Shown piece after piece: positions 3,271 to 14,996 of a stretch of DNA of 64,000 nucleotides (position 1 is the first letter of the stretch; each line of letters opens with the position of its first letter). A model generated the notes under the pieces. It was given only the letters and a program-made list of their open reading frames with translations, searched no databases and was not told where the DNA came from. Source of the DNA: Bacillota bacterium (GTDB taxonomy: Bacteria > Bacillota > Sulfobacillia > Fermentithermobacillales > Fermentithermobacillaceae); assembly GCA_050260675.1 (NCBI GenBank), contig JBLNCN010000011.1:745197-809196 (forward strand), read 5' to 3'. The translations under genes and the position numbers were made by a program.

Positions 3271-3667
3271 ATGAGAATCGCTACCTACCTGCTGTTCGAC
3301 CTCCAATGCAGCGACGCGCTGGAGACCTACAGAGAAACTTTCGATGCCAAGTTGGTCTGCAAGCACCTGTTCAACGAACATATGACGAAGGACCCGCAGC
3401 TTTTGGGGAAAGGTCTTTCACGCAGAACTCAAGATCAAGGACTTCTACATCTTTATGTGCGATACCGCTTCATCCTTCGACTATGACAAGCAAGCGTACA
3501 AGATAACGGTCGAGTGCGACAGCCTTGAAGATGCGTCAAGGTACTTCGAGAGGCTCTCAAGAGGAGGACAGGTGCTCTCCCCACTGGCCAAAATGCCCTG
3601 GGGAGACACCGCCGGCCACTTGCGGGACGCTTTCGGCATCAACTGGGATATCGTCTACAGCCCGTAA
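3271..3667 (+). pseudogene. PhnB-like / VOC-fold protein (3-demethylubiquinone-9 3-methyltransferase-like domain) split by a +1 frameshift
   Basis: Frame 1 gives MRIATYLLFDLQCSDALETYRETFDAKLV...DPQLLG. Frame 2 continues GKVFHAELKIKDFYIFMCD...ITVECDSLEDASRYFERLSRGGQVLSPLAKMPWGDTAGHLRDAFGINWDIVYSP. The switch is at the TTTTGGGG run 3401-3408. Confidence 0.6.
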
Positions 3668-4154
3668 CCATATTGTTGACTCATTGAGTCTCGGATCGCA
3701 CTAGTATAGTATAGCAGGCAAAACGATCACGAATCACGGGCGTTTCTGGTATTGGGACTCGGACCGGGGTCAGAACCATGTTTCGTGCGCCAAGACTCCT
3801 CCGCTGAGGCTGGAAGAGAGGCGGTTAACTGCGCCTGGCTATGGGAAGTGGGCCATCGGCGAACGGCTGTCCTCTCTGTACAAGAAGAGGCAGAGAGTAA
3901 AGGTCGGGTCCGGCGAAAGGCAGGAGACAGACAGCAGCTGGGGACCCCGGATGTCCCCCTGAGAAAGACAGAGAAAGGAAACGCTCAATGCCGACCCTGA
4001 CCGCCTAGGATTCCTGGGCCAGCCTCGCAGCCTTGTGCTGTCCGGCGGGCTGTTTCTAAGGATTGCGAGCAGCCAGGCGGTAATCAGGAGATCCTCGGCA
4101 TACGTAGTGAGCGCCGCAGAAAGCAAAAAGGTGAACCGCTCCAGCAGCGACTCT

Positions 4155-4673
4155 TCAGTGGTCTTTGGAAACCAAGTACCACCGACTTTCGTCGTTCCTC
4201 ACTATACCAAGATTGCGCAGAGTCTGAAGAACATATCTCACCCTTCGAGGAATAGTTCCTCGATCCCCGTAGATGGCCGCAATGCGGCTGTAGAGCTGAC
4301 TAGCCTCAACTCCATTCCCTCCAACCAGAACTAGACGATTCAGGACTCCGAAGACGTCGGCAACGAAGGGTGTAGAGTCGATAAGCAACTGCAGACGAAT
4401 CTCCTGTCGCGATGAAGGTGGAAGGCTACTCATTTTCGCATAAGCGGCTGCAAGCCTCTCCTTAGGGATCAACGAGGAGGCGCCAACCATGCGTTCCAGC
4501 TGACTGACTGTCTTTCGCAGAGATGTTGCTGTTGGTATCTCCGGGGATAGGTAATCTCTTAGTGAAGCCCCTAGATCGCTGGGCCCATCAGCTTCCATGG
4601 ATCGTTCGAGAGCATAATCAATCCACTCCGGCCGTAGAGACCTGTCAAACATGATGGGGATACGCGCGTTCAA
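4155..4673 (-). CDS. Small (172 aa) hypothetical protein, last gene of the BREX-like operon; possible BrxA-like accessory factor
   Basis: TTG start at 4673 overlaps the pglZ stop (TTGA) with a GAGGTG RBS 8 nt upstream. No recognisable catalytic motif. A helix-rich VRYVLQTLRNLGIV C-terminus suggests a wHTH. Confidence 0.45.
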   Translation of the reverse strand: MNARIPIMFDRSLRPEWIDYALERSMEADGPSDLGASLRDYLSPEIPTATSLRKTVSQLERMVGASSLIPKERLAAAYAKMSSLPPSSRQEIRLQLLIDSTPFVADVFGVLNRLVLVGGNGVEASQLYSRIAAIYGDRGTIPRRVRYVLQTLRNLGIVRNDESRWYLVSKDH

Positions 4674-6364
4674 CTATGAAACACCTCTGCAACTGGTATG
4701 AGCACTTCCTCTATGCTTAGCCCGCCGTGGCAGTAGCTCTTCGAGCCCATCTCATCAAAGCTTCCGAAGTCTTGCGCAAATAGGGGCCATCGGTCTGGTG
4801 GAAAACCAGGAGGTCTGAAGGAGTAAGCCCTGTCCGAGACGAAACGTCTGCAGACTGCATCATTTTCGAAGATTCGGACCCTCTTGGATCCTTTCTCAGC
4901 TAGTTCACCGACGTGGATCCGCCCGGTGCCTTCGCACAAAGCTTCACCATGATCAGCCGTGATAAATACTCTATAGCCGTGCTTGAACGCTTCGGAGATC
5001 ATCATCTCGAAACGTGGTTTACCAGGCCACCTGCTGCAAGCTTCTCTGAAGGTTTCGGTTTCGGGATTCACACCATGGCAGTACTCATCCCATGTTGTGT
5101 CCACAATACATACTCTCCTTCGGGCAAGGGCAAAGGATTCGAGTACAGCGGACTCCTCCTTGGATGTCACACAAGCACTGCTATCGCCGTAGCGACGGGA
5201 CCAAGCCAGTCGTTCCAGTCTTTCAGTGTGCCTCTCGACTCGGTAATCGGACGGAACACGGCCCTCAAAGAACAGTCTGCGGCTGAACCATGTTGTAGTC
5301 GGAATAGCAGCAAACCCGATCTTGACGATGCATTGTGACACGATCCCCTTGGCCTCCAGATCCTCTTGCACCGCGAGCCAAGCCGGAAGTCCGAGACCAT
5401 CCATCATGAAAATCACGGCCTTACTGTCGCCAACGTCCCAGTCCACTCTATCCAAGACACCTGCTATTCGCAAAACCTCCTGGCTGGAGGAAGATAGGAT
5501 CAGGGCATAGTTCCTTATGAGCCAAGCCTGAAACGCTTTGTTGGCCTCGAGATGATCCGTGCCACTCAATCGACCCCGCAAGAGTATCCGGCAATACTCA
5601 AGTCCATAACGTGCACAATCAACTTCGGACGCCTCGGGGCCGAGATACCCTGATAAGGGTTCTTCCCTAAGGGACTCACGTCGCCCTAACTTTGTTGCCT
5701 CTCGTATCAGGATTCTCACCGGCTCAGAACAAGCAGCGGGCCAGTCGTCTGCCGTTCGCAATAATGCCGCGCGAGCGCTCGATGGATCAGTGAGTACCTC
5801 CGGCACAAGGATAATCCGCTCCAGATAGCTGCAGAGGATCTGCGCAATCTCCCTGGGAAGGCCTTCGTTCGATATTGCTAACCGGCTAAGCAGTCCCATG
5901 ACTCCATCCGCGTGACGAAGGTAGATGGGGTCAATTCCATATAGAGATCGAGAGATCAGAATCGCAGTCTCCTGGGAATCCAGGTTGTCAGGAACTCTAC
6001 TATGTAGAGAGAACAACTCTTCCCACAGCGAGATGGGTATGCCTCTGATCACTTTGGTCGAGAAACGCGGAAAAACGTCACTGATCCCAATCGACACCCA
6101 TCGATAATCGCAGAGGCGAGAGTCAACCAGGGCTCTAGTAGCGACGGGGTCTATAACTGGGAAGATGGGCTTCTCCCCATCGGGAATCTCCTTCAGCAAT
6201 CTAATGTTCTCAAGATCCAGGTCCTGAACGCTCATACCCACGCTCCTGATGGCTTCTCGGATATCTGCCAGTTCAAGGAGATCGTCGGGATCCTCACAGA
6301 AGGTGGGAATACCGGTTATTGGTGTGTCTAACTCCTGAAGGATAGCGGAAACCCACTTCTTCAT
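4670..6364 (-). CDS. pglZ: PglZ-domain protein (alkaline-phosphatase superfamily, BREX core component)
   Basis: Motifs AIPTTTWFSRRLFFEG, ITADHGEA and CHGGLSIEEVLIPV match the PglZ signature (T.T..SR, DHG, HGG.S..E..VP). I moved the start to the Met at 6364, which has a GGGGAG RBS and a 4-nt overlap-type junction with the methylase stop at 6382. Confidence 0.75.
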   Translation of the reverse strand: MKKWVSAILQELDTPITGIPTFCEDPDDLLELADIREAIRSVGMSVQDLDLENIRLLKEIPDGEKPIFPVIDPVATRALVDSRLCDYRWVSIGISDVFPRFSTKVIRGIPISLWEELFSLHSRVPDNLDSQETAILISRSLYGIDPIYLRHADGVMGLLSRLAISNEGLPREIAQILCSYLERIILVPEVLTDPSSARAALLRTADDWPAACSEPVRILIREATKLGRRESLREEPLSGYLGPEASEVDCARYGLEYCRILLRGRLSGTDHLEANKAFQAWLIRNYALILSSSSQEVLRIAGVLDRVDWDVGDSKAVIFMMDGLGLPAWLAVQEDLEAKGIVSQCIVKIGFAAIPTTTWFSRRLFFEGRVPSDYRVERHTERLERLAWSRRYGDSSACVTSKEESAVLESFALARRRVCIVDTTWDEYCHGVNPETETFREACSRWPGKPRFEMMISEAFKHGYRVFITADHGEALCEGTGRIHVGELAEKGSKRVRIFENDAVCRRFVSDRAYSFRPPGFPPDRWPLFAQDFGSFDEMGSKSYCHGGLSIEEVLIPVAEVFHS

Positions 6365-6381
6365 TGGGCTCTCCCCGATCA

Positions 6382-9027
6382 CTAGATTTCCCACTTGAAC
6401 TCCAGCTGAGTTGCGCTTGTCGAGACCATGTCCTTGGCTATGTCTGAGTACATCTGGATCTCTCGGTCTCCCTGGACTACGGTTAGTGGCAGCTTCTCAC
6501 ATACCCGGAGGACGGTCCCGAACTGCTTGGATTCCCAGCAGTACCGAAATCCCTCCAATAGTGCCTCTCGACGAAACACCTTTATCCGTCCTCGTTGGGC
6601 GACATAGCCAGAAAAAACCCTGAGCAGATTCTTGCGTCTGAGGGCATCCAGATCCCTTTCGCGGTTTGGATCTGGAAGTCTCCACCGCTCATCTTCATCC
6701 AAGATAAAGTTCTCCCTAAGGAGCGTCCTGAGTTCAAAATGCTGTTCAGATGGGTCCCAATTCCTAACTTCCTGTAAGTAGCGAGGCGTTAGTTCGCCCA
6801 AGGTGAGCGGGTACTGACTCAATTGAGAGCGGATCCACTGGATTGCACTCTTTTCGTCATGGACGAAGAGTGAGCCCTGTTCAACCTCGGAGTGAATTCG
6901 AAGGGCATCGTAGCGTGCAGCCTGTTCGTGCAGGAAATACATATCATCACGTTCCACGAACCTCTCGTCAAGCATGTGGTAGAAGTCGGGAGCAGACATT
7001 GGAACCGGGATCCCGTTCTTCAGATAGTACGCGATCATCCGATCATACAGCAAGTATCGTGTACGCTCATCGACGACCTTCAGTCGACCACTCTCTGTAG
7101 TCACACCTACTGGCATAGCGGACAGGTATTCTCGGACAAACTCAATAACCCCTGAGACCTCCTTGTGATGACTCGCGAAGGACTCGGTGAACTCCTTCCT
7201 CGGCTTGTACGCAGAAATGACCAGATCCTGATTCACGGTACCGCGACGGGTCACAGCATTGAAGGAGCGTTGACGCTTGTTCAGAGTCCGAACATCCGCA
7301 ATCATTAGACCAGCAAGTTCCAAGGCATTCTGGATGGCCATCCATACCGAGTTCTGGCTGTTGTGAAACACAATTGTCATCCAGTGACCCGGCTTGAGGA
7401 TGCGCGCACATTCTGCAAGTCCCCGTCTCATGATCTCGGAGTAAAAGTCTATCCCCTTGTTGTGAACGTAGTTGAGCACGCAGTCCTCTCGTGGGGCTGT
7501 CTTGACCTTGAGCCAGCTCTCAATAAAGGAATTGAGCTCGGCGTACTGGATTGAGTCACCAAAGGGTGGATCAGTGAATATGTAGTCAACGCTCTCCGAG
7601 GGGATGTTGTGCAAGTCGGAAATGCTCTGTGTGGATACGAAAACATCCCCGGAGATCGCTGTCCTAAGTTTGCCAACATTCTGAACCTTGCGCCGGAGCA
7701 CGTCAAAAACATTGCGTTCCAGATGGTTCGATGGCGTGTACAGGGTACCTGCGACTCCGCCTCCGCCACCGGAATACCCCTGCTTTCTGGATATGTAGTT
7801 GTTTATGGAGCTTAGGCAGAAGCGAAAGAGCCTTGTGTGCCTTCTGGAAGACAGTTCAGCCTCCCAGAGACTGGCATAGGCGAGCAACGCCCTCGGCGTG
7901 TACATTTGGCTAACGTACTGAATGCCACTACCGTTAATCAGCTTGTTCGTCTGCCGGCCCGGTGCAAAAGCATCTAGTGGGTACTTCGGAAGACTCTCCG
8001 ATCGAATCCTCTCAGCAATGACTCTAGCTTGTCCTGGTAAAGCTTCAACAAAGACTCTCTTCTTTCCTGCTTCGAGCCATTGGCCCACCAAAGCAAGTGC
8101 CGGCTCTCTAATGTAGACCCGCCGCTGAGGATCAAACACTGTCTCAAACTTGCGCTCAATCTTTGTGACCCCGGATCTACGGTTGGCGACTTTGCCGACC
8201 AAAGCCCTACAGTGGGGACACATGAAGCTGGGACCGGCTTCATTATTGCCGATAGCATCATAAAAGGAGAACTCTGAGGTACAGACAGGACACACGAAAA
8301 CGTCGGACCATAGAGCGGCTGCCACACGTCGGCCTCTATCTTCATAGAGCCAGGATAAGGTGCTCTCTACCTTATCAATGACAGACATTGCTTCATCTGC
8401 AAAGTCGTCAAGGCTATGAAGGTCTGTATAGTTACGGGCAATGAAGGTCGCTACTGGTGAAAGGTCGGAGAGGATTGCGCGTCTCTTACCCAGTCTTCCT
8501 ATCGGAACGTTTCCATCATATACCGCACCTTCTTGCGTAACTCGGTAGTGTAGCGACTCCACCGAGGCTGTGTCTCCACACAATACTGCTGCAACACCAG
8601 TCATGCCGGTACCGCAGAAGCCATCAAAGACCACATCTCCGGGATCGGTGTAATGAAGTATGTACCTCATGATGGCCTTGTGCGGAACTTTTGTATGGTA
8701 GCTGTGAACTTGGTATACGGGATCGTTTTTGCCATCGCTCACGTCTGCAGCATATTGGTCGCGAAAGGCACCTTGAGTTCGCTTACCTTGACCGTCTACC
8801 ATCTCTGCTACAAAGGGGTTTGGACATGCAGTGTACTGCGGAGGCTCGCTCAGGTCCAGTATGTTCCGTATCGAAGAAGTCTCAGGAAAGCCGCCCGCGA
8901 GCCGAGAGGACGAATCTCCCAGGATACCCTCAAGGATGGATCGGTATCCTTCACCCCTCTCGCGCTCGAAAGTGTCTACCTTTGTAGATCGTTTGGTGTC
9001 TACAAAAAGCCTACTCTGATCTTTCAT
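6382..9027 (-). CDS. N6-adenine (or N4-cytosine) DNA methyltransferase, DPPF catalytic motif, with internal Zn-ribbon insert (PglX-like role)
   Basis: Motif I VFDGFCGTGMTGVAAV lies near the N-terminus. The insert CPVCTSEFSFYDAIGNNEAGPSFMCPHC is a CxxC..CxxC ribbon. Motif IV is DYIFTDPPFGDSIQY, followed by ILKPGHWMTIVF and W-ISAYK. The start was chosen at Met 9027 (GGAGA RBS); the track start 9087 overlaps brxC by 77 nt. Confidence 0.75.
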   Translation of the reverse strand: MKDQSRLFVDTKRSTKVDTFERERGEGYRSILEGILGDSSSRLAGGFPETSSIRNILDLSEPPQYTACPNPFVAEMVDGQGKRTQGAFRDQYAADVSDGKNDPVYQVHSYHTKVPHKAIMRYILHYTDPGDVVFDGFCGTGMTGVAAVLCGDTASVESLHYRVTQEGAVYDGNVPIGRLGKRRAILSDLSPVATFIARNYTDLHSLDDFADEAMSVIDKVESTLSWLYEDRGRRVAAALWSDVFVCPVCTSEFSFYDAIGNNEAGPSFMCPHCRALVGKVANRRSGVTKIERKFETVFDPQRRVYIREPALALVGQWLEAGKKRVFVEALPGQARVIAERIRSESLPKYPLDAFAPGRQTNKLINGSGIQYVSQMYTPRALLAYASLWEAELSSRRHTRLFRFCLSSINNYISRKQGYSGGGGGVAGTLYTPSNHLERNVFDVLRRKVQNVGKLRTAISGDVFVSTQSISDLHNIPSESVDYIFTDPPFGDSIQYAELNSFIESWLKVKTAPREDCVLNYVHNKGIDFYSEIMRRGLAECARILKPGHWMTIVFHNSQNSVWMAIQNALELAGLMIADVRTLNKRQRSFNAVTRRGTVNQDLVISAYKPRKEFTESFASHHKEVSGVIEFVREYLSAMPVGVTTESGRLKVVDERTRYLLYDRMIAYYLKNGIPVPMSAPDFYHMLDERFVERDDMYFLHEQAARYDALRIHSEVEQGSLFVHDEKSAIQWIRSQLSQYPLTLGELTPRYLQEVRNWDPSEQHFELRTLLRENFILDEDERWRLPDPNRERDLDALRRKNLLRVFSGYVAQRGRIKVFRREALLEGFRYCWESKQFGTVLRVCEKLPLTVVQGDREIQMYSDIAKDMVSTSATQLEFKWEI

Positions 9028-12000
9028 CGCCAGTCTCCAGCAGGAAGCGGATGGATTCGGGGTCATCGTCACCGATAGTCTCGTCAAGCCACTTCTCGAA
9101 GAGTACTCGAAGCTCCATCACCTTGAGAGGACCACCCGATCCATGGAACAGGGCTGCGGTGAGGCTCCGGACAGATAGAGTCTTTAGCCTTAGGCCCCTT
9201 AGCAACGCATTAACGGAAGCGACAAAGCTATCATCGACCGGCTCTGGGATTTCCTCGCTGGACAGGAACTGGAGAATTACCGTCTTCTCCTCGTTTGTGA
9301 GAGCCTGCATGAGGGGGCTGTCTCTATGGTCTCTGAGTTCGGCGAGAAGCCTTGAAGTCCACTCACCAAACAAAGAATCGAGCGCTTCTTCACACTGTTG
9401 AAGAACAGCATCTGCGGGAGACTGTCCCTCATAGTTTCTGGGGTCGAACCTTGTCATAGGGTTGAGCGACGTGGGACTTCGTAGCAGTTCTTCGTCGCTA
9501 CAGCCCTGATAGATGGGTAACGACACAATCCTGCTTTCGATCTTGTCAAGTGCCGCCTTGTTTAGACCAGCTATTCGAGAAAGCTTGCTCATCTGCCTGA
9601 GCCTCTGCCCCTGCAGGAGCTGCTTTCTTCGTGTATCTCCATCTCGGGATAGGCTGTACGACCTTTCAAGGCTATGGTAGGTACGAAGAGCCGATTGCGT
9701 CGCTTTCTGAACGGACAAGCCAAGTCCGGCGAAATCCTGATTGGATGGATCTGCGTATGCCTCCCGTAGTCTTCGTTTCACAACCTGGAGGTCGTCCTGA
9801 AATGCTGGATTATCTTTGAGGATCTCCTCAAATCTGACGAGCGCCGAAAGACTACTATGGTACTGACTCAGGAATTGTAGGAGAGCTTCCAGCTGCTCTA
9901 CTCGACGCAGTAGTTCAGCCAGCTCGGCTATCTCACGCGTCTCGATGCGGAGATTGCTCATCTTGGATTTGTGATTGAGAGGAACAAGGGTCTCAAGAAT
10001 GGACTTCGCAGACTCGCAGGTCGCCACCCAGGTGTCGGCGGAAAACGATTCAGAAAAGGGGAGACCACCTTTGACTGTGGCCTCATAGTCCAGCAATCTC
10101 TCCAGAAACACTGACAGGCGACTCTGGAACTCAACCATAGCCGGGCCATACGTCGCTGAATTTGCCAATAAACCCCTATTCACCTTGAGGAGGCTGAAGA
10201 GTTTGGCCCACTTTTCCACTGGTACTGCGCTTGGACGGGATACTCGGACAACCCGGTCCCATTTTGATACTTGCCTGTACATTTCCCTCAGATTCGAGGC
10301 ATCGAACCGGGTATTACCCACACCTGTAATAATGAGATAGCCAGAAGCCACCCCTGCAGCAAGGACGACTAATAGCCACTCAGCCTCGATAGGCTCTCCT
10401 TTCATCCATACCCTACCATCCCTGCTTTCGAAGAGATCGGAGTTGTTGAGAACGTGATTCAGTTCGGGGCCACCGAGACGGACAAGAACCTTCGTTAGCC
10501 AGGGTGACCGCTCTGGTATGGCGACGGTGTCCTCGTATAGCCCCAGAGCAGAGAGAACCGCCCTTCCCATAGTCGTAGCCATACCCGTCTCACATAGTAT
10601 CTCGAGAGCTGCTTGAGCGATTTGTTCTCTTGTATTCTCACGAACCTCTATGGCGAACGAGGGGTACCCCGGATACTTTCGGTCAAAGTGGGAAGCAAAC
10701 ATTAGCTGACTCAAAGTATCAAACTTGTCTTTGAGTACGCTATTGGCTCTCGATGGCGCAAGATCCGCCAGCCACTCGCCCAAGGACCGTCTCCTACCGT
10801 CGAACCTGACCGAGAGCCACGTGTTGGCGTTCGTGTTCAGCAATGGTATGACTACTTCTAGGCGATTCCTGGCGATGCGTTCGTACGCCAAATGTTCGTC
10901 ACCCTTGCACTCCGCAGCACGTTCCTTCGCAGCAGCGTACTCTCGGACCATATCCAGGAACGTACCCTCGTCATTCTCGGCTTCAGACCCCACCTTCTCG
11001 AATCTCGATGGCGGAAAGTCCTCGAGAAACCAATATGCCTCATCGGGCTTATCGTCCCAGGATTCCTGGACACCGAGGACTCTTCGCGAGGGCACAATAA
11101 AGAGGTAGAAGTCCTTTGGAGGCTGTGCAGTTGACCTTTGCCCCGGGAAACCAAAGAACAACCAGCCGGGCCTATCCACACCTTTTTCCTTCCACACAAG
11201 GCTATACTCCCATAATCGTCCTTCTGAAATGGGTCGTACACTGTCGATCTCTAGAGCTCTGGCAAACACCTCGTTCAGATACCGTAGAAGGGTATCCTTA
11301 CGAAGCGTCCTGGCCACAGTCGCCACGTGCTGATCATAATCGACATCACGTGTTGGATCGATGAAGTACTGACCGGAAGTCTCGGAGTAGCTAAGGAACT
11401 GACCGTTAGCGGCTTCTCTAGCCTTATCGAGTAATCGCTTTGCCGCCAAGGTCAGGAAGTTTGGATCCTGAACGGGGACACTTGTCTCCCATAGAAGGCT
11501 ATTCTTGAGATCGCCTGGAGTCATGCCGACAGGTGTGTTGATGCCGTCAGTAGTCAGCCGGTTAACTGCCAACCCGTAGATGAGCCTAAGGGCGGCGCCT
11601 TCATCACGTGGGTCAAGGAATCGGCCGGCAATATGCGATCGTATTGTGACCACGTTCTGAACTACTTTGGCGATTTCTGAGTTCGCTCGCAGGCCCTGGT
11701 CCGCTTCTATATGACGCCAGTATTTGTCGGCTGTCACAAGATCGAGGTGCCCTCCATCGATCTCTCGGTCAACTAGAGACCGAGCCTCCCGAGATAGGAC
11801 TGTTAGGATCTCTCTCCGCTCCACCACAAAAACTCGCTGGAATTCCTGGAGAAACGATGGATGGGCAGGAAACAGCGATACAAATCGCTCGATCTCGGAA
11901 GGGAGCACCTCATAGAGTGGGAATAGCGGTTTGAGGACATCCCGGATTCGCTCCCTCTGTTCAGCCGTTTTCTGAAAGAGGTATCTTTCCACTAGTTCTT

Positions 12001-12778
12001 CGATTCCTTTGCCATCAATGACAAAGTCGTAGAACCTTTGCTTCACGCGATTTACTGCCGAGGCAACGTGATTGAAACGGGGATTGCTAAACAAAGACTG
12101 CTGGAGTCCTGCAACGAATCGGAATCGTGAACCATCGCAGAACTCTCCAAGGGCCTGTAGTACCGAGAGGTCAAGCACGAGGGCCTGCTCGTCTCTTGTG
12201 TCGAGGTAACCGAGCAGTTCATCTATGACAAGCAGTACGCCCATGCCGGGACAGTATGAATCAAAAGATTCCATGAAACGCATGAACTCGTATTTCACAT
12301 TTGGGACTTCGCTTTGTGTGCGGAACTGGAAGGTGAAACCTACGGAGCGAGCTAGGGCGCAGAGCTCATCGGCCACCATCTCATAGAGCGACATCATCGT
12401 TCCAGCGATCTGTAGTCGGCGAACCTTGAAATGGCCAGCGAGTAGGCGCATTTTCTCACGCCAGGACTCATCCCGAACATACTCCAGATAGCTGGCGTCC
12501 TCTGCTATGAGGGAAACGAAGCTCATTACGTGACTCTTTCCAGTGCCATAGTTACCGACAACAAATATGCCCTTACCTTCGATGCCGCGCCCGAGGTCGA
12601 GCTGAGGTATAGCGACCGACTCCAAGGCCCTGCCGAGACTCGGAGTTATGACGAAAGTCGAGATAAGCCGCTTGGCTTTGGTTCTGTTGTCTGCATCGTT
12701 TATCTTTATCACAGTCTCAATGGGGTTAAGGGTGAACAGGTCTCCGTACTTCACTAGAAAGCCACCGCCTTCAAGCAA
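9011..12778 (-). CDS. brxC: Large (1255 aa) P-loop ATPase, BrxC/PglY-like (DUF499-type) BREX component
   Basis: N-terminal NPIETVIKINDAD...GKGIFVVGNYGTGKSHVMSFVSLIAED is a Walker A motif, followed by LLVIDELLGYLD (Walker B-like). Size and position 5' of the MTase-PglZ pair fit BrxC/PglY. The family assignment comes from memory of the DUF499 N-terminus and was not checked with an HMM. Confidence 0.6.
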   Translation of the reverse strand: MLEGGGFLVKYGDLFTLNPIETVIKINDADNRTKAKRLISTFVITPSLGRALESVAIPQLDLGRGIEGKGIFVVGNYGTGKSHVMSFVSLIAEDASYLEYVRDESWREKMRLLAGHFKVRRLQIAGTMMSLYEMVADELCALARSVGFTFQFRTQSEVPNVKYEFMRFMESFDSYCPGMGVLLVIDELLGYLDTRDEQALVLDLSVLQALGEFCDGSRFRFVAGLQQSLFSNPRFNHVASAVNRVKQRFYDFVIDGKGIEELVERYLFQKTAEQRERIRDVLKPLFPLYEVLPSEIERFVSLFPAHPSFLQEFQRVFVVERREILTVLSREARSLVDREIDGGHLDLVTADKYWRHIEADQGLRANSEIAKVVQNVVTIRSHIAGRFLDPRDEGAALRLIYGLAVNRLTTDGINTPVGMTPGDLKNSLLWETSVPVQDPNFLTLAAKRLLDKAREAANGQFLSYSETSGQYFIDPTRDVDYDQHVATVARTLRKDTLLRYLNEVFARALEIDSVRPISEGRLWEYSLVWKEKGVDRPGWLFFGFPGQRSTAQPPKDFYLFIVPSRRVLGVQESWDDKPDEAYWFLEDFPPSRFEKVGSEAENDEGTFLDMVREYAAAKERAAECKGDEHLAYERIARNRLEVVIPLLNTNANTWLSVRFDGRRRSLGEWLADLAPSRANSVLKDKFDTLSQLMFASHFDRKYPGYPSFAIEVRENTREQIAQAALEILCETGMATTMGRAVLSALGLYEDTVAIPERSPWLTKVLVRLGGPELNHVLNNSDLFESRDGRVWMKGEPIEAEWLLVVLAAGVASGYLIITGVGNTRFDASNLREMYRQVSKWDRVVRVSRPSAVPVEKWAKLFSLLKVNRGLLANSATYGPAMVEFQSRLSVFLERLLDYEATVKGGLPFSESFSADTWVATCESAKSILETLVPLNHKSKMSNLRIETREIAELAELLRRVEQLEALLQFLSQYHSSLSALVRFEEILKDNPAFQDDLQVVKRRLREAYADPSNQDFAGLGLSVQKATQSALRTYHSLERSYSLSRDGDTRRKQLLQGQRLRQMSKLSRIAGLNKAALDKIESRIVSLPIYQGCSDEELLRSPTSLNPMTRFDPRNYEGQSPADAVLQQCEEALDSLFGEWTSRLLAELRDHRDSPLMQALTNEEKTVILQFLSSEEIPEPVDDSFVASVNALLRGLRLKTLSVRSLTAALFHGSGGPLKVMELRVLFEKWLDETIGDDDPESIRFLLETGDERSE

Positions 12779-12992
12779 ACTTCAGGTTCTGCCCTTACAA
12801 GGAAAGGCTTTCGTCACTAGAGGGAGACATTCCTGGTAGACGGGTCGGATGTGTATTTCAAGCAGCTCCAGGACAATCAGGGTCACCTGGATCTCTTGCT
12901 CTCTTCTCCGTCGGCCCGGGTCCAAACCGCGCGGTGGTCAGGGACTGTATTAGTCAGTCAGGCACTCAATAATGCAGCAACAAGCCAGTCCC

Positions 12993-14240
12993 CTACTTCG
13001 TGTACTGCACCCCGTCGGTATACCTGTTGCCGGGGTTCCAGAGCATGTAGGTCTCAATACCGTGCTCAAACAGGGCCTCTATCTGACCGCGTACTTCCGC
13101 AGGGCCGTACTTGATGCGCATGGAGAAGTCCTGCAGCCAGGGACGTATCTTCGACCGGAGCCCGGCGGTGCGCTCCTGAGCCTCGTCCATCGCCTTGCTG
13201 ACCACTTCTTTCGGGTGCGCCTCCGGCACTTGGAAACCGTATATGCCGGCGTTGAAGTAGTGGGACGGGTAGACCATCGGGCATATGAAGTCGACGGAGT
13301 CGGCTACCTCCTCCAGCTTCTGTCCAATGCCCATGTCGTCGACGGCGATGGTGACGAACCCGAAAATGTCGGCGCCCAGGTAGGCCCTATCGCCGATCTC
13401 CTCTGACATGTACTTCAGGAAGGCGGCTATGGCGTCACCGCGGCCGTTGAATTCCGAATGGCCCGGCATCAGCACGGAACCGCTGGTCTCCATGCCCCGC
13501 GAGTTGTCGGGGAAGCGCACGTAGTCCAGCTGTATCTCATCAAAACCCATGTCCAGCGCCCATAGTGCGACATCCCGTACGTACTCCCAGTTCTTCCTGT
13601 CGTACGGATTGAGCCATATCATACCGTCTCTGGCGCGCCAAAGGCTCCCGTCGGCGTTCCTTATCGCCCTCTCGGGCTCTGCTTTGGCGCGGTAAGGGTC
13701 CTGAAAAGCCACGATGCGGGCTATCATGTAGTAGTCCTGATCGTGAAGCACGCTCACAAGAGCGGGAAAGTGGGGGTAATGGGCTGGAAGAGCAGGCACG
13801 TTCTCCGGCGGCGTCGTGGGCACCCTGCCGGAATTGTCCTTTACGTCGATCACGAACGAGTTGAGTCCGTCATGACCCCTCACGAACTCCATGATGGACC
13901 GCATGATCGAGGGCGTCCCCGCCGAGTCCATGGTGAGGTAGACTGCCTTGGCGGTAAGGGCCTTCTCCATCGGAGCGCGCAAATCCGCGGGCGCCGGAGG
14001 TTCCATTATGATCCCGGGCGGCTCAACAGGAACCGGCTCACCACCGAGGAACAACACGGCCCACTCGCCCAGATATCCCGCGCGCCCTGCAAAAAAGGCG
14101 CTTAGGAGCGCGATCGCCGTGAGGCTGTATAGCGCGATCTTCCTCTCTCGCATCTTGCGCAGTCGGCGTAGCTCAGCAGCATCAGTAGTAGTGGCAGCAA
14201 CCTCTCGGCGATTCGCGTCCGGCATCAGTGGCTCTCCCAT
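12993..14240 (-). CDS. Putative glycoside hydrolase of the DUF4015 family with N-terminal membrane anchor
   Basis: A TM segment IALYSLTAIALLSAFFAG is followed by VYLTMDSAG...FVIDVKDNSGRV...DEIQLDYVRFPD...DFICPMVYPSHY, the characteristic DUF4015 TIM-barrel hydrolase pattern. Confidence 0.6.
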   Translation of the reverse strand: MGEPLMPDANRREVAATTTDAAELRRLRKMRERKIALYSLTAIALLSAFFAGRAGYLGEWAVLFLGGEPVPVEPPGIIMEPPAPADLRAPMEKALTAKAVYLTMDSAGTPSIMRSIMEFVRGHDGLNSFVIDVKDNSGRVPTTPPENVPALPAHYPHFPALVSVLHDQDYYMIARIVAFQDPYRAKAEPERAIRNADGSLWRARDGMIWLNPYDRKNWEYVRDVALWALDMGFDEIQLDYVRFPDNSRGMETSGSVLMPGHSEFNGRGDAIAAFLKYMSEEIGDRAYLGADIFGFVTIAVDDMGIGQKLEEVADSVDFICPMVYPSHYFNAGIYGFQVPEAHPKEVVSKAMDEAQERTAGLRSKIRPWLQDFSMRIKYGPAEVRGQIEALFEHGIETYMLWNPGNRYTDGVQYTK

Positions 14241-14380
14241 TTCTTGCCTGCTAGACGAGGCAATTACAGCTCATTTCTCTACGTGACGAGGGAATACCTC
14301 TCGCTGTTTCCACCCGAACGCAACCTGGCAGCTCTATTCTCAGAGAACATGCAACCAACATGCACTACTCCAGGCTGATG

Positions 14381-14456
14381 TGCATTCCTAACAGCACTAC
14401 TTTGGGAATGCATGAAACCTGTAAGCACTTCCCCACGAGGATGTGCTTACAGGTTT
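14381..14456. terminator. Two adjacent inverted repeats: TGCATTCC-N16-GGAATGCA and AAACCTGTAAGCAC-N14-GTGCTTACAGGTTT. Likely terminator or attenuator downstream of cheX and upstream of the DUF4015 gene
   Basis: The first has an 8-bp stem and the second a perfect 14-bp stem, at 14381-14412 and 14415-14456 in the convergent/promoter gap. No U-tract follows. Confidence 0.35.
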
Positions 14457-14522
14457 CAGTCCGGGCGTTAGCCGCAATTCTATCGGGGTCAGCCGCAGTT
14501 CTATTAAGCGTCAGCCGCGATC

Positions 14523-14996
14523 CTACTTCTTGCTGTAATACCGAAGGGCCACTGATATCTCAATGAGCCCCACCGGCAGCTCGATGGGGATGACAAGCCT
14601 TTGGATGTCCACGGTGGATATCATGACACCCTTGCCGGCGATGATGGTGGGCGGAGTGAGCTTGCAGATGTAGCCGTGCTCCTCAAGACCTGCCGCGGCC
14701 TGACCGGTGATGATGTTCCCCATTTCAGCGATGGACGACTCGGCCAGCTCGTTGAACATCGGGACCGGCTCCCCCAAAAGGGTTGCGGCAATCCCCTTGG
14801 CCGTCTTTTCTGACATGCTGTACAGCACCGTGCCCTCGGCATCACCCGCGACTCCCAGGGCCACGTTGACCTCTCCGGACGTAGCCTTGGATGACTCCAG
14901 CCGAAGCTGCCCCCTGGTTACTTCCATGCTCAGCTCCGTCTGAAGGAACTTGTACGCGGCATCCAAGAACGGGTTTACCAGACCGGCTTTGAACAT
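14523..14996 (-). CDS. cheX: Chemotaxis phosphatase CheX (CheC/CheX/FliY family)
   Basis: 157 aa, with the motif SIAEMGNIITGQAAAGL characteristic of the CheC/CheX family; terminal gene of the che operon. Confidence 0.7.
   Translation of the reverse strand: MFKAGLVNPFLDAAYKFLQTELSMEVTRGQLRLESSKATSGEVNVALGVAGDAEGTVLYSMSEKTAKGIAATLLGEPVPMFNELAESSIAEMGNIITGQAAAGLEEHGYICKLTPPTIIAGKGVMISTVDIQRLVIPIELPVGLIEISVALRYYSKK

Follow-up and report, generated by a model that had tools for sequence, protein, structure and literature searches.

In this work, we analyzed a 64-kb window (64,000 nucleotides of contig JBLNCN010000011.1) from the genome of a Bacillota bacterium, which carries on its minus strand a compact four-gene cassette of the bacteriophage exclusion (BREX) family. 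The four proteins are the ATPase BrxC, the adenine methyltransferase PglXI, a divergent PglZ, and a short BrxA. BrxF and the helicase BrxHII are absent from the window, the cassette belongs to a separate clade of type-3 BREX, its catalytic motifs are intact, and all four genes have evolved under purifying selection. Judged by analogy with type-1 BREX, the chances are about even that the cassette is a reduced, working type-3 BREX that would methylate DNA through PglXI and restrict through PglZ.

The four proteins match type-3 BREX models or the BrxA fold

An earlier note, made from the letters of this DNA alone, had described a BREX-like module of four coupled genes. The four minus-strand open reading frames (ORFs) are present at 4155–12778, where that note had put them, with the same TTGA overlap between the last two, and their coordinates were reproduced. 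Placing the module in the BREX family was also correct; the best matches of all four proteins are type-3 models, complemented for the smallest protein by a match to the BrxA fold. The NCBI labels for these genes read only "DUF6079 family protein" and "DNA methyltransferase."

The ATPase had been considered BrxC/PglY-like, and this was confirmed by a full-length match to Pfam DUF6079 (816 bits), the sole Pfam match of the protein, and by a match to PADLOC BrxC (PDLC02482, 850 bits) covering model positions 1–1231 of 1231. The NCBIfam model of type-1 BrxC (BREX_BrxC) reached 28.6 bits, with a cut-off of 400. Both the Walker A (G78–S82) and the Walker B (D186/E187) motifs are conserved. The GTG start at 12754 agrees with the 1247-aa NCBI product (P0001, 100% identical) and with the N termini of homologs. 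Typical type-3 BrxC proteins carry a CxxC...CxxC motif at the place of window 9452–9511 (BrxC residues 1090–1109). Three of these four cysteines are replaced (by Y, N, and T) in the window protein and throughout a subclade (P0002–P0012, P0017, P0025, and others) that includes five-gene loci that keep the helicase, which suggests that a Zn-ribbon was lost from BrxC in that subclade. Because the replacements are common to the whole subclade, we rejected them as a sign of decay.

The methyltransferase matches PglXI models (PADLOC PDLC02541, 850 bits) and not PglX, in line with its earlier assignment to the N6_N4 (DPPF) type, a hallmark of type-3 BREX. Pfam N6_N4_Mtase matches the protein in two parts, at residues 121–169 and about 483–525, and the FxGxG (F157xG159xG161) and DPPF (D506-P-P-F509) motifs are conserved. 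The approximately 300 residues between these motifs carry the conserved cysteines C266/C269/C290/C293. The resulting architecture, a nested target-recognition insert with a four-cysteine cluster followed by a C-terminal helix-turn-helix region, is the one described for the type-3 BrxXI/PglXI methylases (PMC12839542). A start at ATG 9027 yields 881 aa, as in the NCBI annotation and in P0121.

The third protein had been called a clear PglZ. Its membership in the family stands, but the match is far from clear-cut: it scored 18.4 bits with Pfam PglZ, below the gathering cut-off of 25, and its best NCBIfam match, BREX_PglZ_3, reached 172 bits under a cut-off of 250 and covered the C-terminal half only, whereas PADLOC PglZ (PDLC02558) gave 152 bits. 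Across 51 type-3 PglZ sequences, 44 residues reach at least 90% conservation, and the window protein keeps 41 of them, including D332, T366, D436, H440, D481, H482, H556, and several N-terminal positions. Based on the PADLOC and BREX_PglZ_3 scores and on these residues, we class the protein as a divergent, type-3-like member of the family. It is about 100 aa shorter than canonical PglZ through several small deletions dispersed over the N-terminal half, with no loss of a whole domain. The ATG at 6364 has a GGGGAG ribosome-binding site at 6371–6376, and the N terminus that it yields, MKKWVS, aligns with those of homologs. A PDB sequence search with PglZ returned nothing significant.

The earlier note had seen neither brxA nor any other extra hallmark gene in the cassette, and here our results differ. 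The 172-aa protein matched PADLOC BrxA (PDLC02437) with E=4.6e-11. Its AF2 model (pLDDT 93) had BrxA 7ZGE as the top fold match in the PDB (probability 1.00, TM 0.64/0.57, 166 aligned columns), well apart from all others, and the profile of its family reaches canonical type-3 BrxA proteins of 234–260 aa across the whole length of the short protein. Together, these three lines of evidence identify the protein encoded after pglZ as BrxA; a brxA homolog is among the findings that the earlier note had itself named as refuting its reading. It is without the C-terminal 70–80 aa of canonical type-3 BrxA. A PDB sequence search with the BrxA profile gave nothing significant, and within the PDB only the fold search pointed to BrxA.

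BrxF and BrxHII are absent from the window

We built hidden Markov models (HMMs) of BrxF and of the BrxHII helicase from the related loci described below, with labels checked against PADLOC, and searched the six-frame translation of the whole 64-kb window. Neither model found a match at E≤10, and a tblastn search of the window with clade helicases and canonical BrxF proteins was likewise negative, which supports the earlier description of the gene order as that of a type-3 system stripped of brxF and brxHII. There is no BrxF ORF in the region upstream of brxC (12779–12992), nor are there further BREX ORFs in the cassette beyond the four. No protein of the clade exceeds its canonical counterpart in length, ruling out a fusion of BrxF to another gene. 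Two relatives have a small ORF upstream of brxC, of 51 aa in L081 and 39 aa in L167; as it is not conserved in the window, we dropped it from consideration.

The cassette belongs to a BrxF-less clade of type-3 BREX

More than 170 related loci were fetched and their ORFs classified, and the contexts of the clade to which the cassette belongs were taken from 12 single look-ups. A scan of metagenomes with a clade-specific BrxC alignment returned, among the matches listed, nearly all canonical type-3 loci. In our trees, the window clade is monophyletic for all four proteins and forms a separate deep branch of type-3. Its BrxC proteins are 40–76% identical to that of the window, compared with 28–33% for canonical type-3. 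A brxF gene lies directly upstream of brxC in 131 of 140 canonical loci and in none of the nine clade loci with upstream sequence. The proteins also differ in size: PglZ has 640–700 aa in canonical loci and 574–585 aa in the clade, and BrxA has 235–270 aa and 171–186 aa, respectively. BrxHII was found in 50 of 64 canonical loci (78%) and in seven of nine clade loci; a 2026 survey reported it in 77% of type-3 loci, which leaves 23% helicase-less (PMC12839542).

The gene order of the window, BrxC-PglXI-[slot]-PglZ-BrxA, is that of type-3 BREX (Goldfarb et al.). In comparison with canonical type-3 systems, the window has no BrxF and no BrxHII, a shorter PglZ and BrxA, and a BrxC that is about 30% identical. 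The five-gene relatives within the clade (L084/L087 Ga0209697_10000798, L167, L168, L004, and L001) share the short PglZ, the short BrxA, and the lack of BrxF, and their BrxC proteins are 44–54% identical. Unlike the window, they keep an SNF2 helicase of about 880 aa, the clade's helicase, between pglXI and pglZ (PADLOC BrxHI|BrxHII, 934 bits). Across the more than 170 loci examined, BREX genes are tightly clustered.

The clade is small: clustering at 90% identity yields about 68 groups of BrxC, and at 50% identity the short BrxA has about 19 representatives in a set of 1.84 billion proteins. Within the PLSDB plasmids, PglZ matched canonical BREX-3 only, at 24–28% identity, and BrxA matched nothing, indicating that the clade is not in PLSDB.

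The surveyed loci also showed variation around the core genes. In L084/L085 (1–9771), a type-1 BREX (BrxA, BrxC, and MmeI-type PglX) stands head-to-head with a five-gene type-3-like system, and between the two a GATase_6 and DUF5049 gene pair occurs twice in inverted orientation (6292–7307 and 8753–9771). Another clade member, L169, has a HEPN-domain gene and a 142-aa gene inserted on the opposite strand between brxC and pglXI (13770–14716). Among canonical type-3 loci, the pglXI-pglZ slot is empty in some. Many encode after pglXI an AAA_15/AAA_21/DUF3696 ATPase of about 640 aa (PADLOC NsnB/OLD/GajA-like) with a partner of about 350 aa; this pair occupies the pglXI-pglZ slot in L013, L034, L061, L071, L126, and L171, is also found in L032, L033, L037, and L057, and replaces BrxHII in some loci and adjoins it in others. 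In L035, L045, L075, and L117 (Bacillaceae and relatives), pglXI is followed by pglZ and brxA, and a longer helicase of about 1075 aa comes after brxA. The Enterococcus faecium plasmid pP47-180 (L174) likewise has pglZ and brxA directly after pglXI; there, brxA is followed, at the helicase position of related loci, by a 325-aa ORF whose 3′ end overlaps with an ISEfm1 transposase gene.

The helicase-less form is maintained in a sister lineage and appears in Alicyclobacillus tolerans

The helicase is missing in three places of the clade: in the window, in its nearest relative, and in A. tolerans (L086), so that a search for the same four-gene cassette elsewhere, as the earlier note had proposed, was successful. 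The nearest relative consists of two contigs, L081 and L172, from one JGI sample (3300044799). L081 encodes a BrxC that is 76% identical to that of the window and the N-terminal part of PglXI; L172 encodes the C terminus of PglXI (77% identical), PglZ (64%), and BrxA (71%). On L172, PglXI ends in ...LEFKWEI*, and after a short spacer PglZ begins with MKNWVS, the same junction as in the window and again with no helicase. This shared junction of the PglXI stop and the PglZ start indicates that the helicase was lost before the window and L172 lineages split. Both sister contigs break within pglXI (L172 1–96 and L081 5799–5832), with no match to PglXI in the first 96 nt of L172. Strain-level variation in the region of the target-recognition domain (TRD) could have interrupted the assembly, or pglXI could be disrupted in the sampled population.

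Between the window and its sister, the proportion of synonymous differences is 0.72–0.81 in all four genes, which is saturated, and that of nonsynonymous differences is 0.12–0.21. The dN/dS ratio is below about 0.1 for each of brxC, pglXI, pglZ, and brxA, and there are no internal stops. These values show that the helicase-less form has been kept under long-term purifying selection.

The window and its sister are homologous from about 18 nt upstream of brxC to the last brxA codons (window ~4171), with unrelated flanks on either side. The genomic contexts thus differ and the homology ends at the cassette borders, arguing that the four-gene block moved as a unit. The GC content of the cassette is 52.4%, compared with about 60% in both flanks. 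Judged by its low GC content and by these homology borders, the cassette is a horizontally acquired unit.

The A. tolerans locus (GCA_021739485.1, JAJFNK010000057.1) matches the window in its four genes and in their order and likewise has no helicase. Its pglXI-pglZ spacer measures about 104 nt compared with 17 nt in the window, and the BrxC and PglZ trees do not group it robustly with the window, so that its helicase loss may be independent. PglXI does group the two, and we considered this as a sign of a single helicase loss and rejected it as unreliable, because the signal sits in a TRD/methyltransferase C-terminal segment that is also common to the five-gene locus L170 and because the BrxC and PglZ trees disagree. 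Over window 7198–8577 (PglXI residues 171–630), the insert/TRD is 50–51% and the adjacent methyltransferase segment 63–70% identical to L086 and L170, compared with 25–36% and 44–54% for the other loci; the N- and C-terminal parts of PglXI lack this pattern of similarity. This distribution suggests that the specificity module of PglXI has been exchanged between loci, independently of the BrxC phylogeny.

A reduced, working BREX weighed against its alternatives

The mechanism that we propose is modeled on type-1 BREX (BrxA, BrxB, BrxC, PglX, PglZ, and BrxL), the system that has been studied experimentally. Type-1 systems have the BrxC-methyltransferase-PglZ core and BrxA in common with the window and differ from it in their PglX methylase (N6_Mtase/Eco57I type), in BrxB, in the BrxL motor, and in gene order. 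By this analogy, BrxC, PglXI, PglZ, and BrxA would assemble into one complex, in which PglXI would N6-methylate adenines at a host-specific motif read by the nested TRD. The same complex would recognize unmethylated incoming phage DNA and block the phage, with BrxC acting as an ATP-driven scaffold or sensor, BrxA as an accessory DNA binder, and PglZ, a metal-dependent nicking nuclease/phosphodiesterase, as the sole effector; a dedicated helicase motor would not be involved. In type-1 BREX, PglZ is a nicking nuclease that depends on metal, with a part in defence and none in methylation (PMC12205998), and PglZ as sole effector has been proposed to suffice in archetypal systems (PMC12839542). We consider it somewhat less likely than not that the cassette is a naturally minimal BREX, its four proteins being sufficient for both self-methylation and phage exclusion without an inactive STAND (iSTAND) protein of the BrxB/BrxF type or a motor (BrxL/BrxH).

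Several points weigh against a working defence system. We found no experimental characterization of a type-3 BREX in the searchable literature. In type-1 systems, PglX cannot methylate without BrxB, BrxC, and PglZ, and in Acinetobacter BrxA is needed as well; the BrxL motor is dispensable for methylation and required for restriction, for which every gene is needed, BrxL included (PMC9122589). On this analogy, a system that has no helicase could still methylate but fail to restrict. Type-1 methylation needs BrxB, yet the window lacks BrxF, the BrxB counterpart. Nor does purifying selection tell a defence system from one that only methylates, since at least one type-1 system requires PglZ, BrxC, and BrxA in order to methylate. 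The evidence from the sister joins two contigs of one sample, with the middle of pglXI unassembled, and the absence of BrxF and of the helicase applies to the 64-kb window, so that either could be encoded elsewhere in the genome.

Among the alternatives, the one that survives best, although we consider it unlikely, is that restriction was lost along with the helicase and that BrxC-PglXI-PglZ-BrxA still methylates the chromosome. The role of such a module could be epigenetic regulation, or protection from other elements that are BREX-like or sensitive to methylation. It would fit the type-1 genetics, in which deletion of BrxL ends restriction and not methylation, and methylation depends on BrxA, BrxB, BrxC, and PglZ (PMC9122589), as well as the view of BrxHII as the functional counterpart of BrxL (PMC12839542), and purifying selection on all four genes would be equally expected. 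On the other hand, the metal-binding and catalytic residues of PglZ are fully conserved, although type-1 methylation needs no PglZ nuclease activity (PMC12205998). Furthermore, the low-GC island and the homology to the sister that stops at its borders point to horizontal spread like that of a defence unit, and the helicase-less state arose or persisted in at least two lineages. The conservation of the PglZ catalytic residues and the block-wise horizontal spread appear to tilt the balance slightly toward defence, without being decisive.

It is improbable that the missing parts act in trans, that is, that a BrxHII-type helicase and possibly a BrxF-like iSTAND are encoded elsewhere in the genome. 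The window is a 64-kb part of a contig that measures at least 817 kb, and the helicase position is flexible, as seen in the canonical loci L035, L045, L075, and L117, where it follows brxA. However, no BrxHII or BrxF signal was obtained in those 64 kb even at the permissive HMM threshold, nor in the 6.6 kb downstream of L172, nor in A. tolerans, where the search covered 10 kb on the upstream side of brxC and about 1.5 kb beyond brxA, and BREX genes are otherwise clustered in every locus of the survey.

That a type-3 BREX is being lost, as the earlier note had considered, is very improbable and, on the sequence evidence, largely refuted: the cassette lacks two of the six canonical genes, the adjoining glyoxalase/PhnB-like gene is broken, and three conserved BrxC cysteines are replaced, but frameshifts and internal stops are absent, dN/dS has stayed low in all four genes since the split from an already helicase-less sister, all catalytic motifs are intact, the cysteine replacements extend to five-gene loci of the subclade, and the absence of BrxF is a property of the entire clade.

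Gene layout and borders of the cassette

The features of the cassette are listed in Table 1. The genes are closely packed once the most plausible starts are used: the pglXI ATG at 9027 overlaps the brxC stop, 17 nt separate the pglXI TAG from the pglZ ATG at 6364, and the TTG start of brxA at 4673 overlaps the pglZ TGA. The hairpin after brxA is a consensus match only and is the probable end of the operon. In the region between the DUF4015 gene and brxC, we detected no sigma-70-like site, and a promoter scan gave nothing above background.

Table 1. Coordinates of the BREX cassette and its bordering elements in the 64-kb window
Feature	Position	Strand	Remarks
brxC/pglY, DUF6079-type P-loop ATPase	9011..12778	-	longest ORF 1255 aa; likely start GTG 12754, 1247 aa
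pglXI (brxXI), type-3 BREX N6-adenine methyltransferase	6382..9087	-	ORF 901 aa; likely start ATG 9027, 881 aa
pglZ, predicted phosphodiesterase/nuclease, short, divergent type-3-like	4670..6394	-	ORF 574 aa; probably 564 aa from ATG 6364
brxA, predicted DNA-binding protein, short	4155..4673	-	172 aa; TTG start
Terminator-like hairpin and T-run	4133..4153	-	directly after the brxA stop; 8-bp stem with 4 GC pairs, then ACCTTTTTGC
Intergenic region, DUF4015 gene to brxC	12779..12992	-	GC transition; presumed promoter region

The flanks are ordinary chromosome. Upstream lie a DUF4015 hydrolase gene and then CheX/CheR/CheB/CheA, and downstream lie a broken glyoxalase/PhnB-like gene and a cation-efflux gene; the hydrolase and the broken gene had been recognized as neighbors before. 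No convincing direct or inverted repeats, integrase, or transposase were found at the cassette borders, and the sole tRNA gene is 16 kb from the cassette. The glyoxalase/PhnB-like gene (3271–3667, plus strand) is broken into several short ORFs, its domain being matched by the C-terminal 70 aa only. The brxA end of the island is about 490 bp away, and the island's insertion may have damaged this gene collaterally. Between the DUF4015 gene and cheX, a 20-nt inverted repeat (14413–14458, 95% complementary, 6-nt loop) is probably a terminator or regulatory hairpin.

Relation to known systems and implications

Streamlined, restriction-modification-like relatives of BREX built around a BrxC-like ATPase have been described, namely the DUF499-centered BREX-related (BR) systems and the HerA/FtsK "BRC" system, and for some of these PglZ has been proposed as the sole effector (PMC12839542). 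The cassette differs from them in that its ATPase is of the DUF6079/BrxC and not the DUF499 family, it encodes PglXI, and it lacks HerA, GNAT, TGT, and STAND genes. The earlier suggestion of a minimal or new BREX variant holds in part: the cassette represents a reduced sub-lineage of type-3 and not a new system. Helicase-less type-3 loci are already known, being implicit in the published figure of 77%. Two elements appear to be new, as we did not find them described in the literature: a coherent clade that lacks BrxF and in which PglZ and BrxA are shortened, and evidence that the four-gene form is maintained by selection.

A BrxB-like iSTAND has been claimed to be retained across all BREX subtypes, and the BrxF-less clade is a counter-example to such a universal partner. 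Where rule-based tools for finding defence systems look for five or six type-3 genes, they may score cassettes of this kind as incomplete or miss them. The A. tolerans record is not labeled as a metagenome-assembled genome and may offer a cultured host for methylation and defence tests.

A four-gene form under selection marks the indispensable parts: evolution treats BrxC, the methylase, PglZ, and BrxA as indispensable, and the BrxF/BrxB-like iSTAND and the helicase as optional. The cassette would be of greater interest if its four proteins prove sufficient for defence; it would then be the simplest natural system in which to reconstitute BREX restriction, with PglZ as the only effector.

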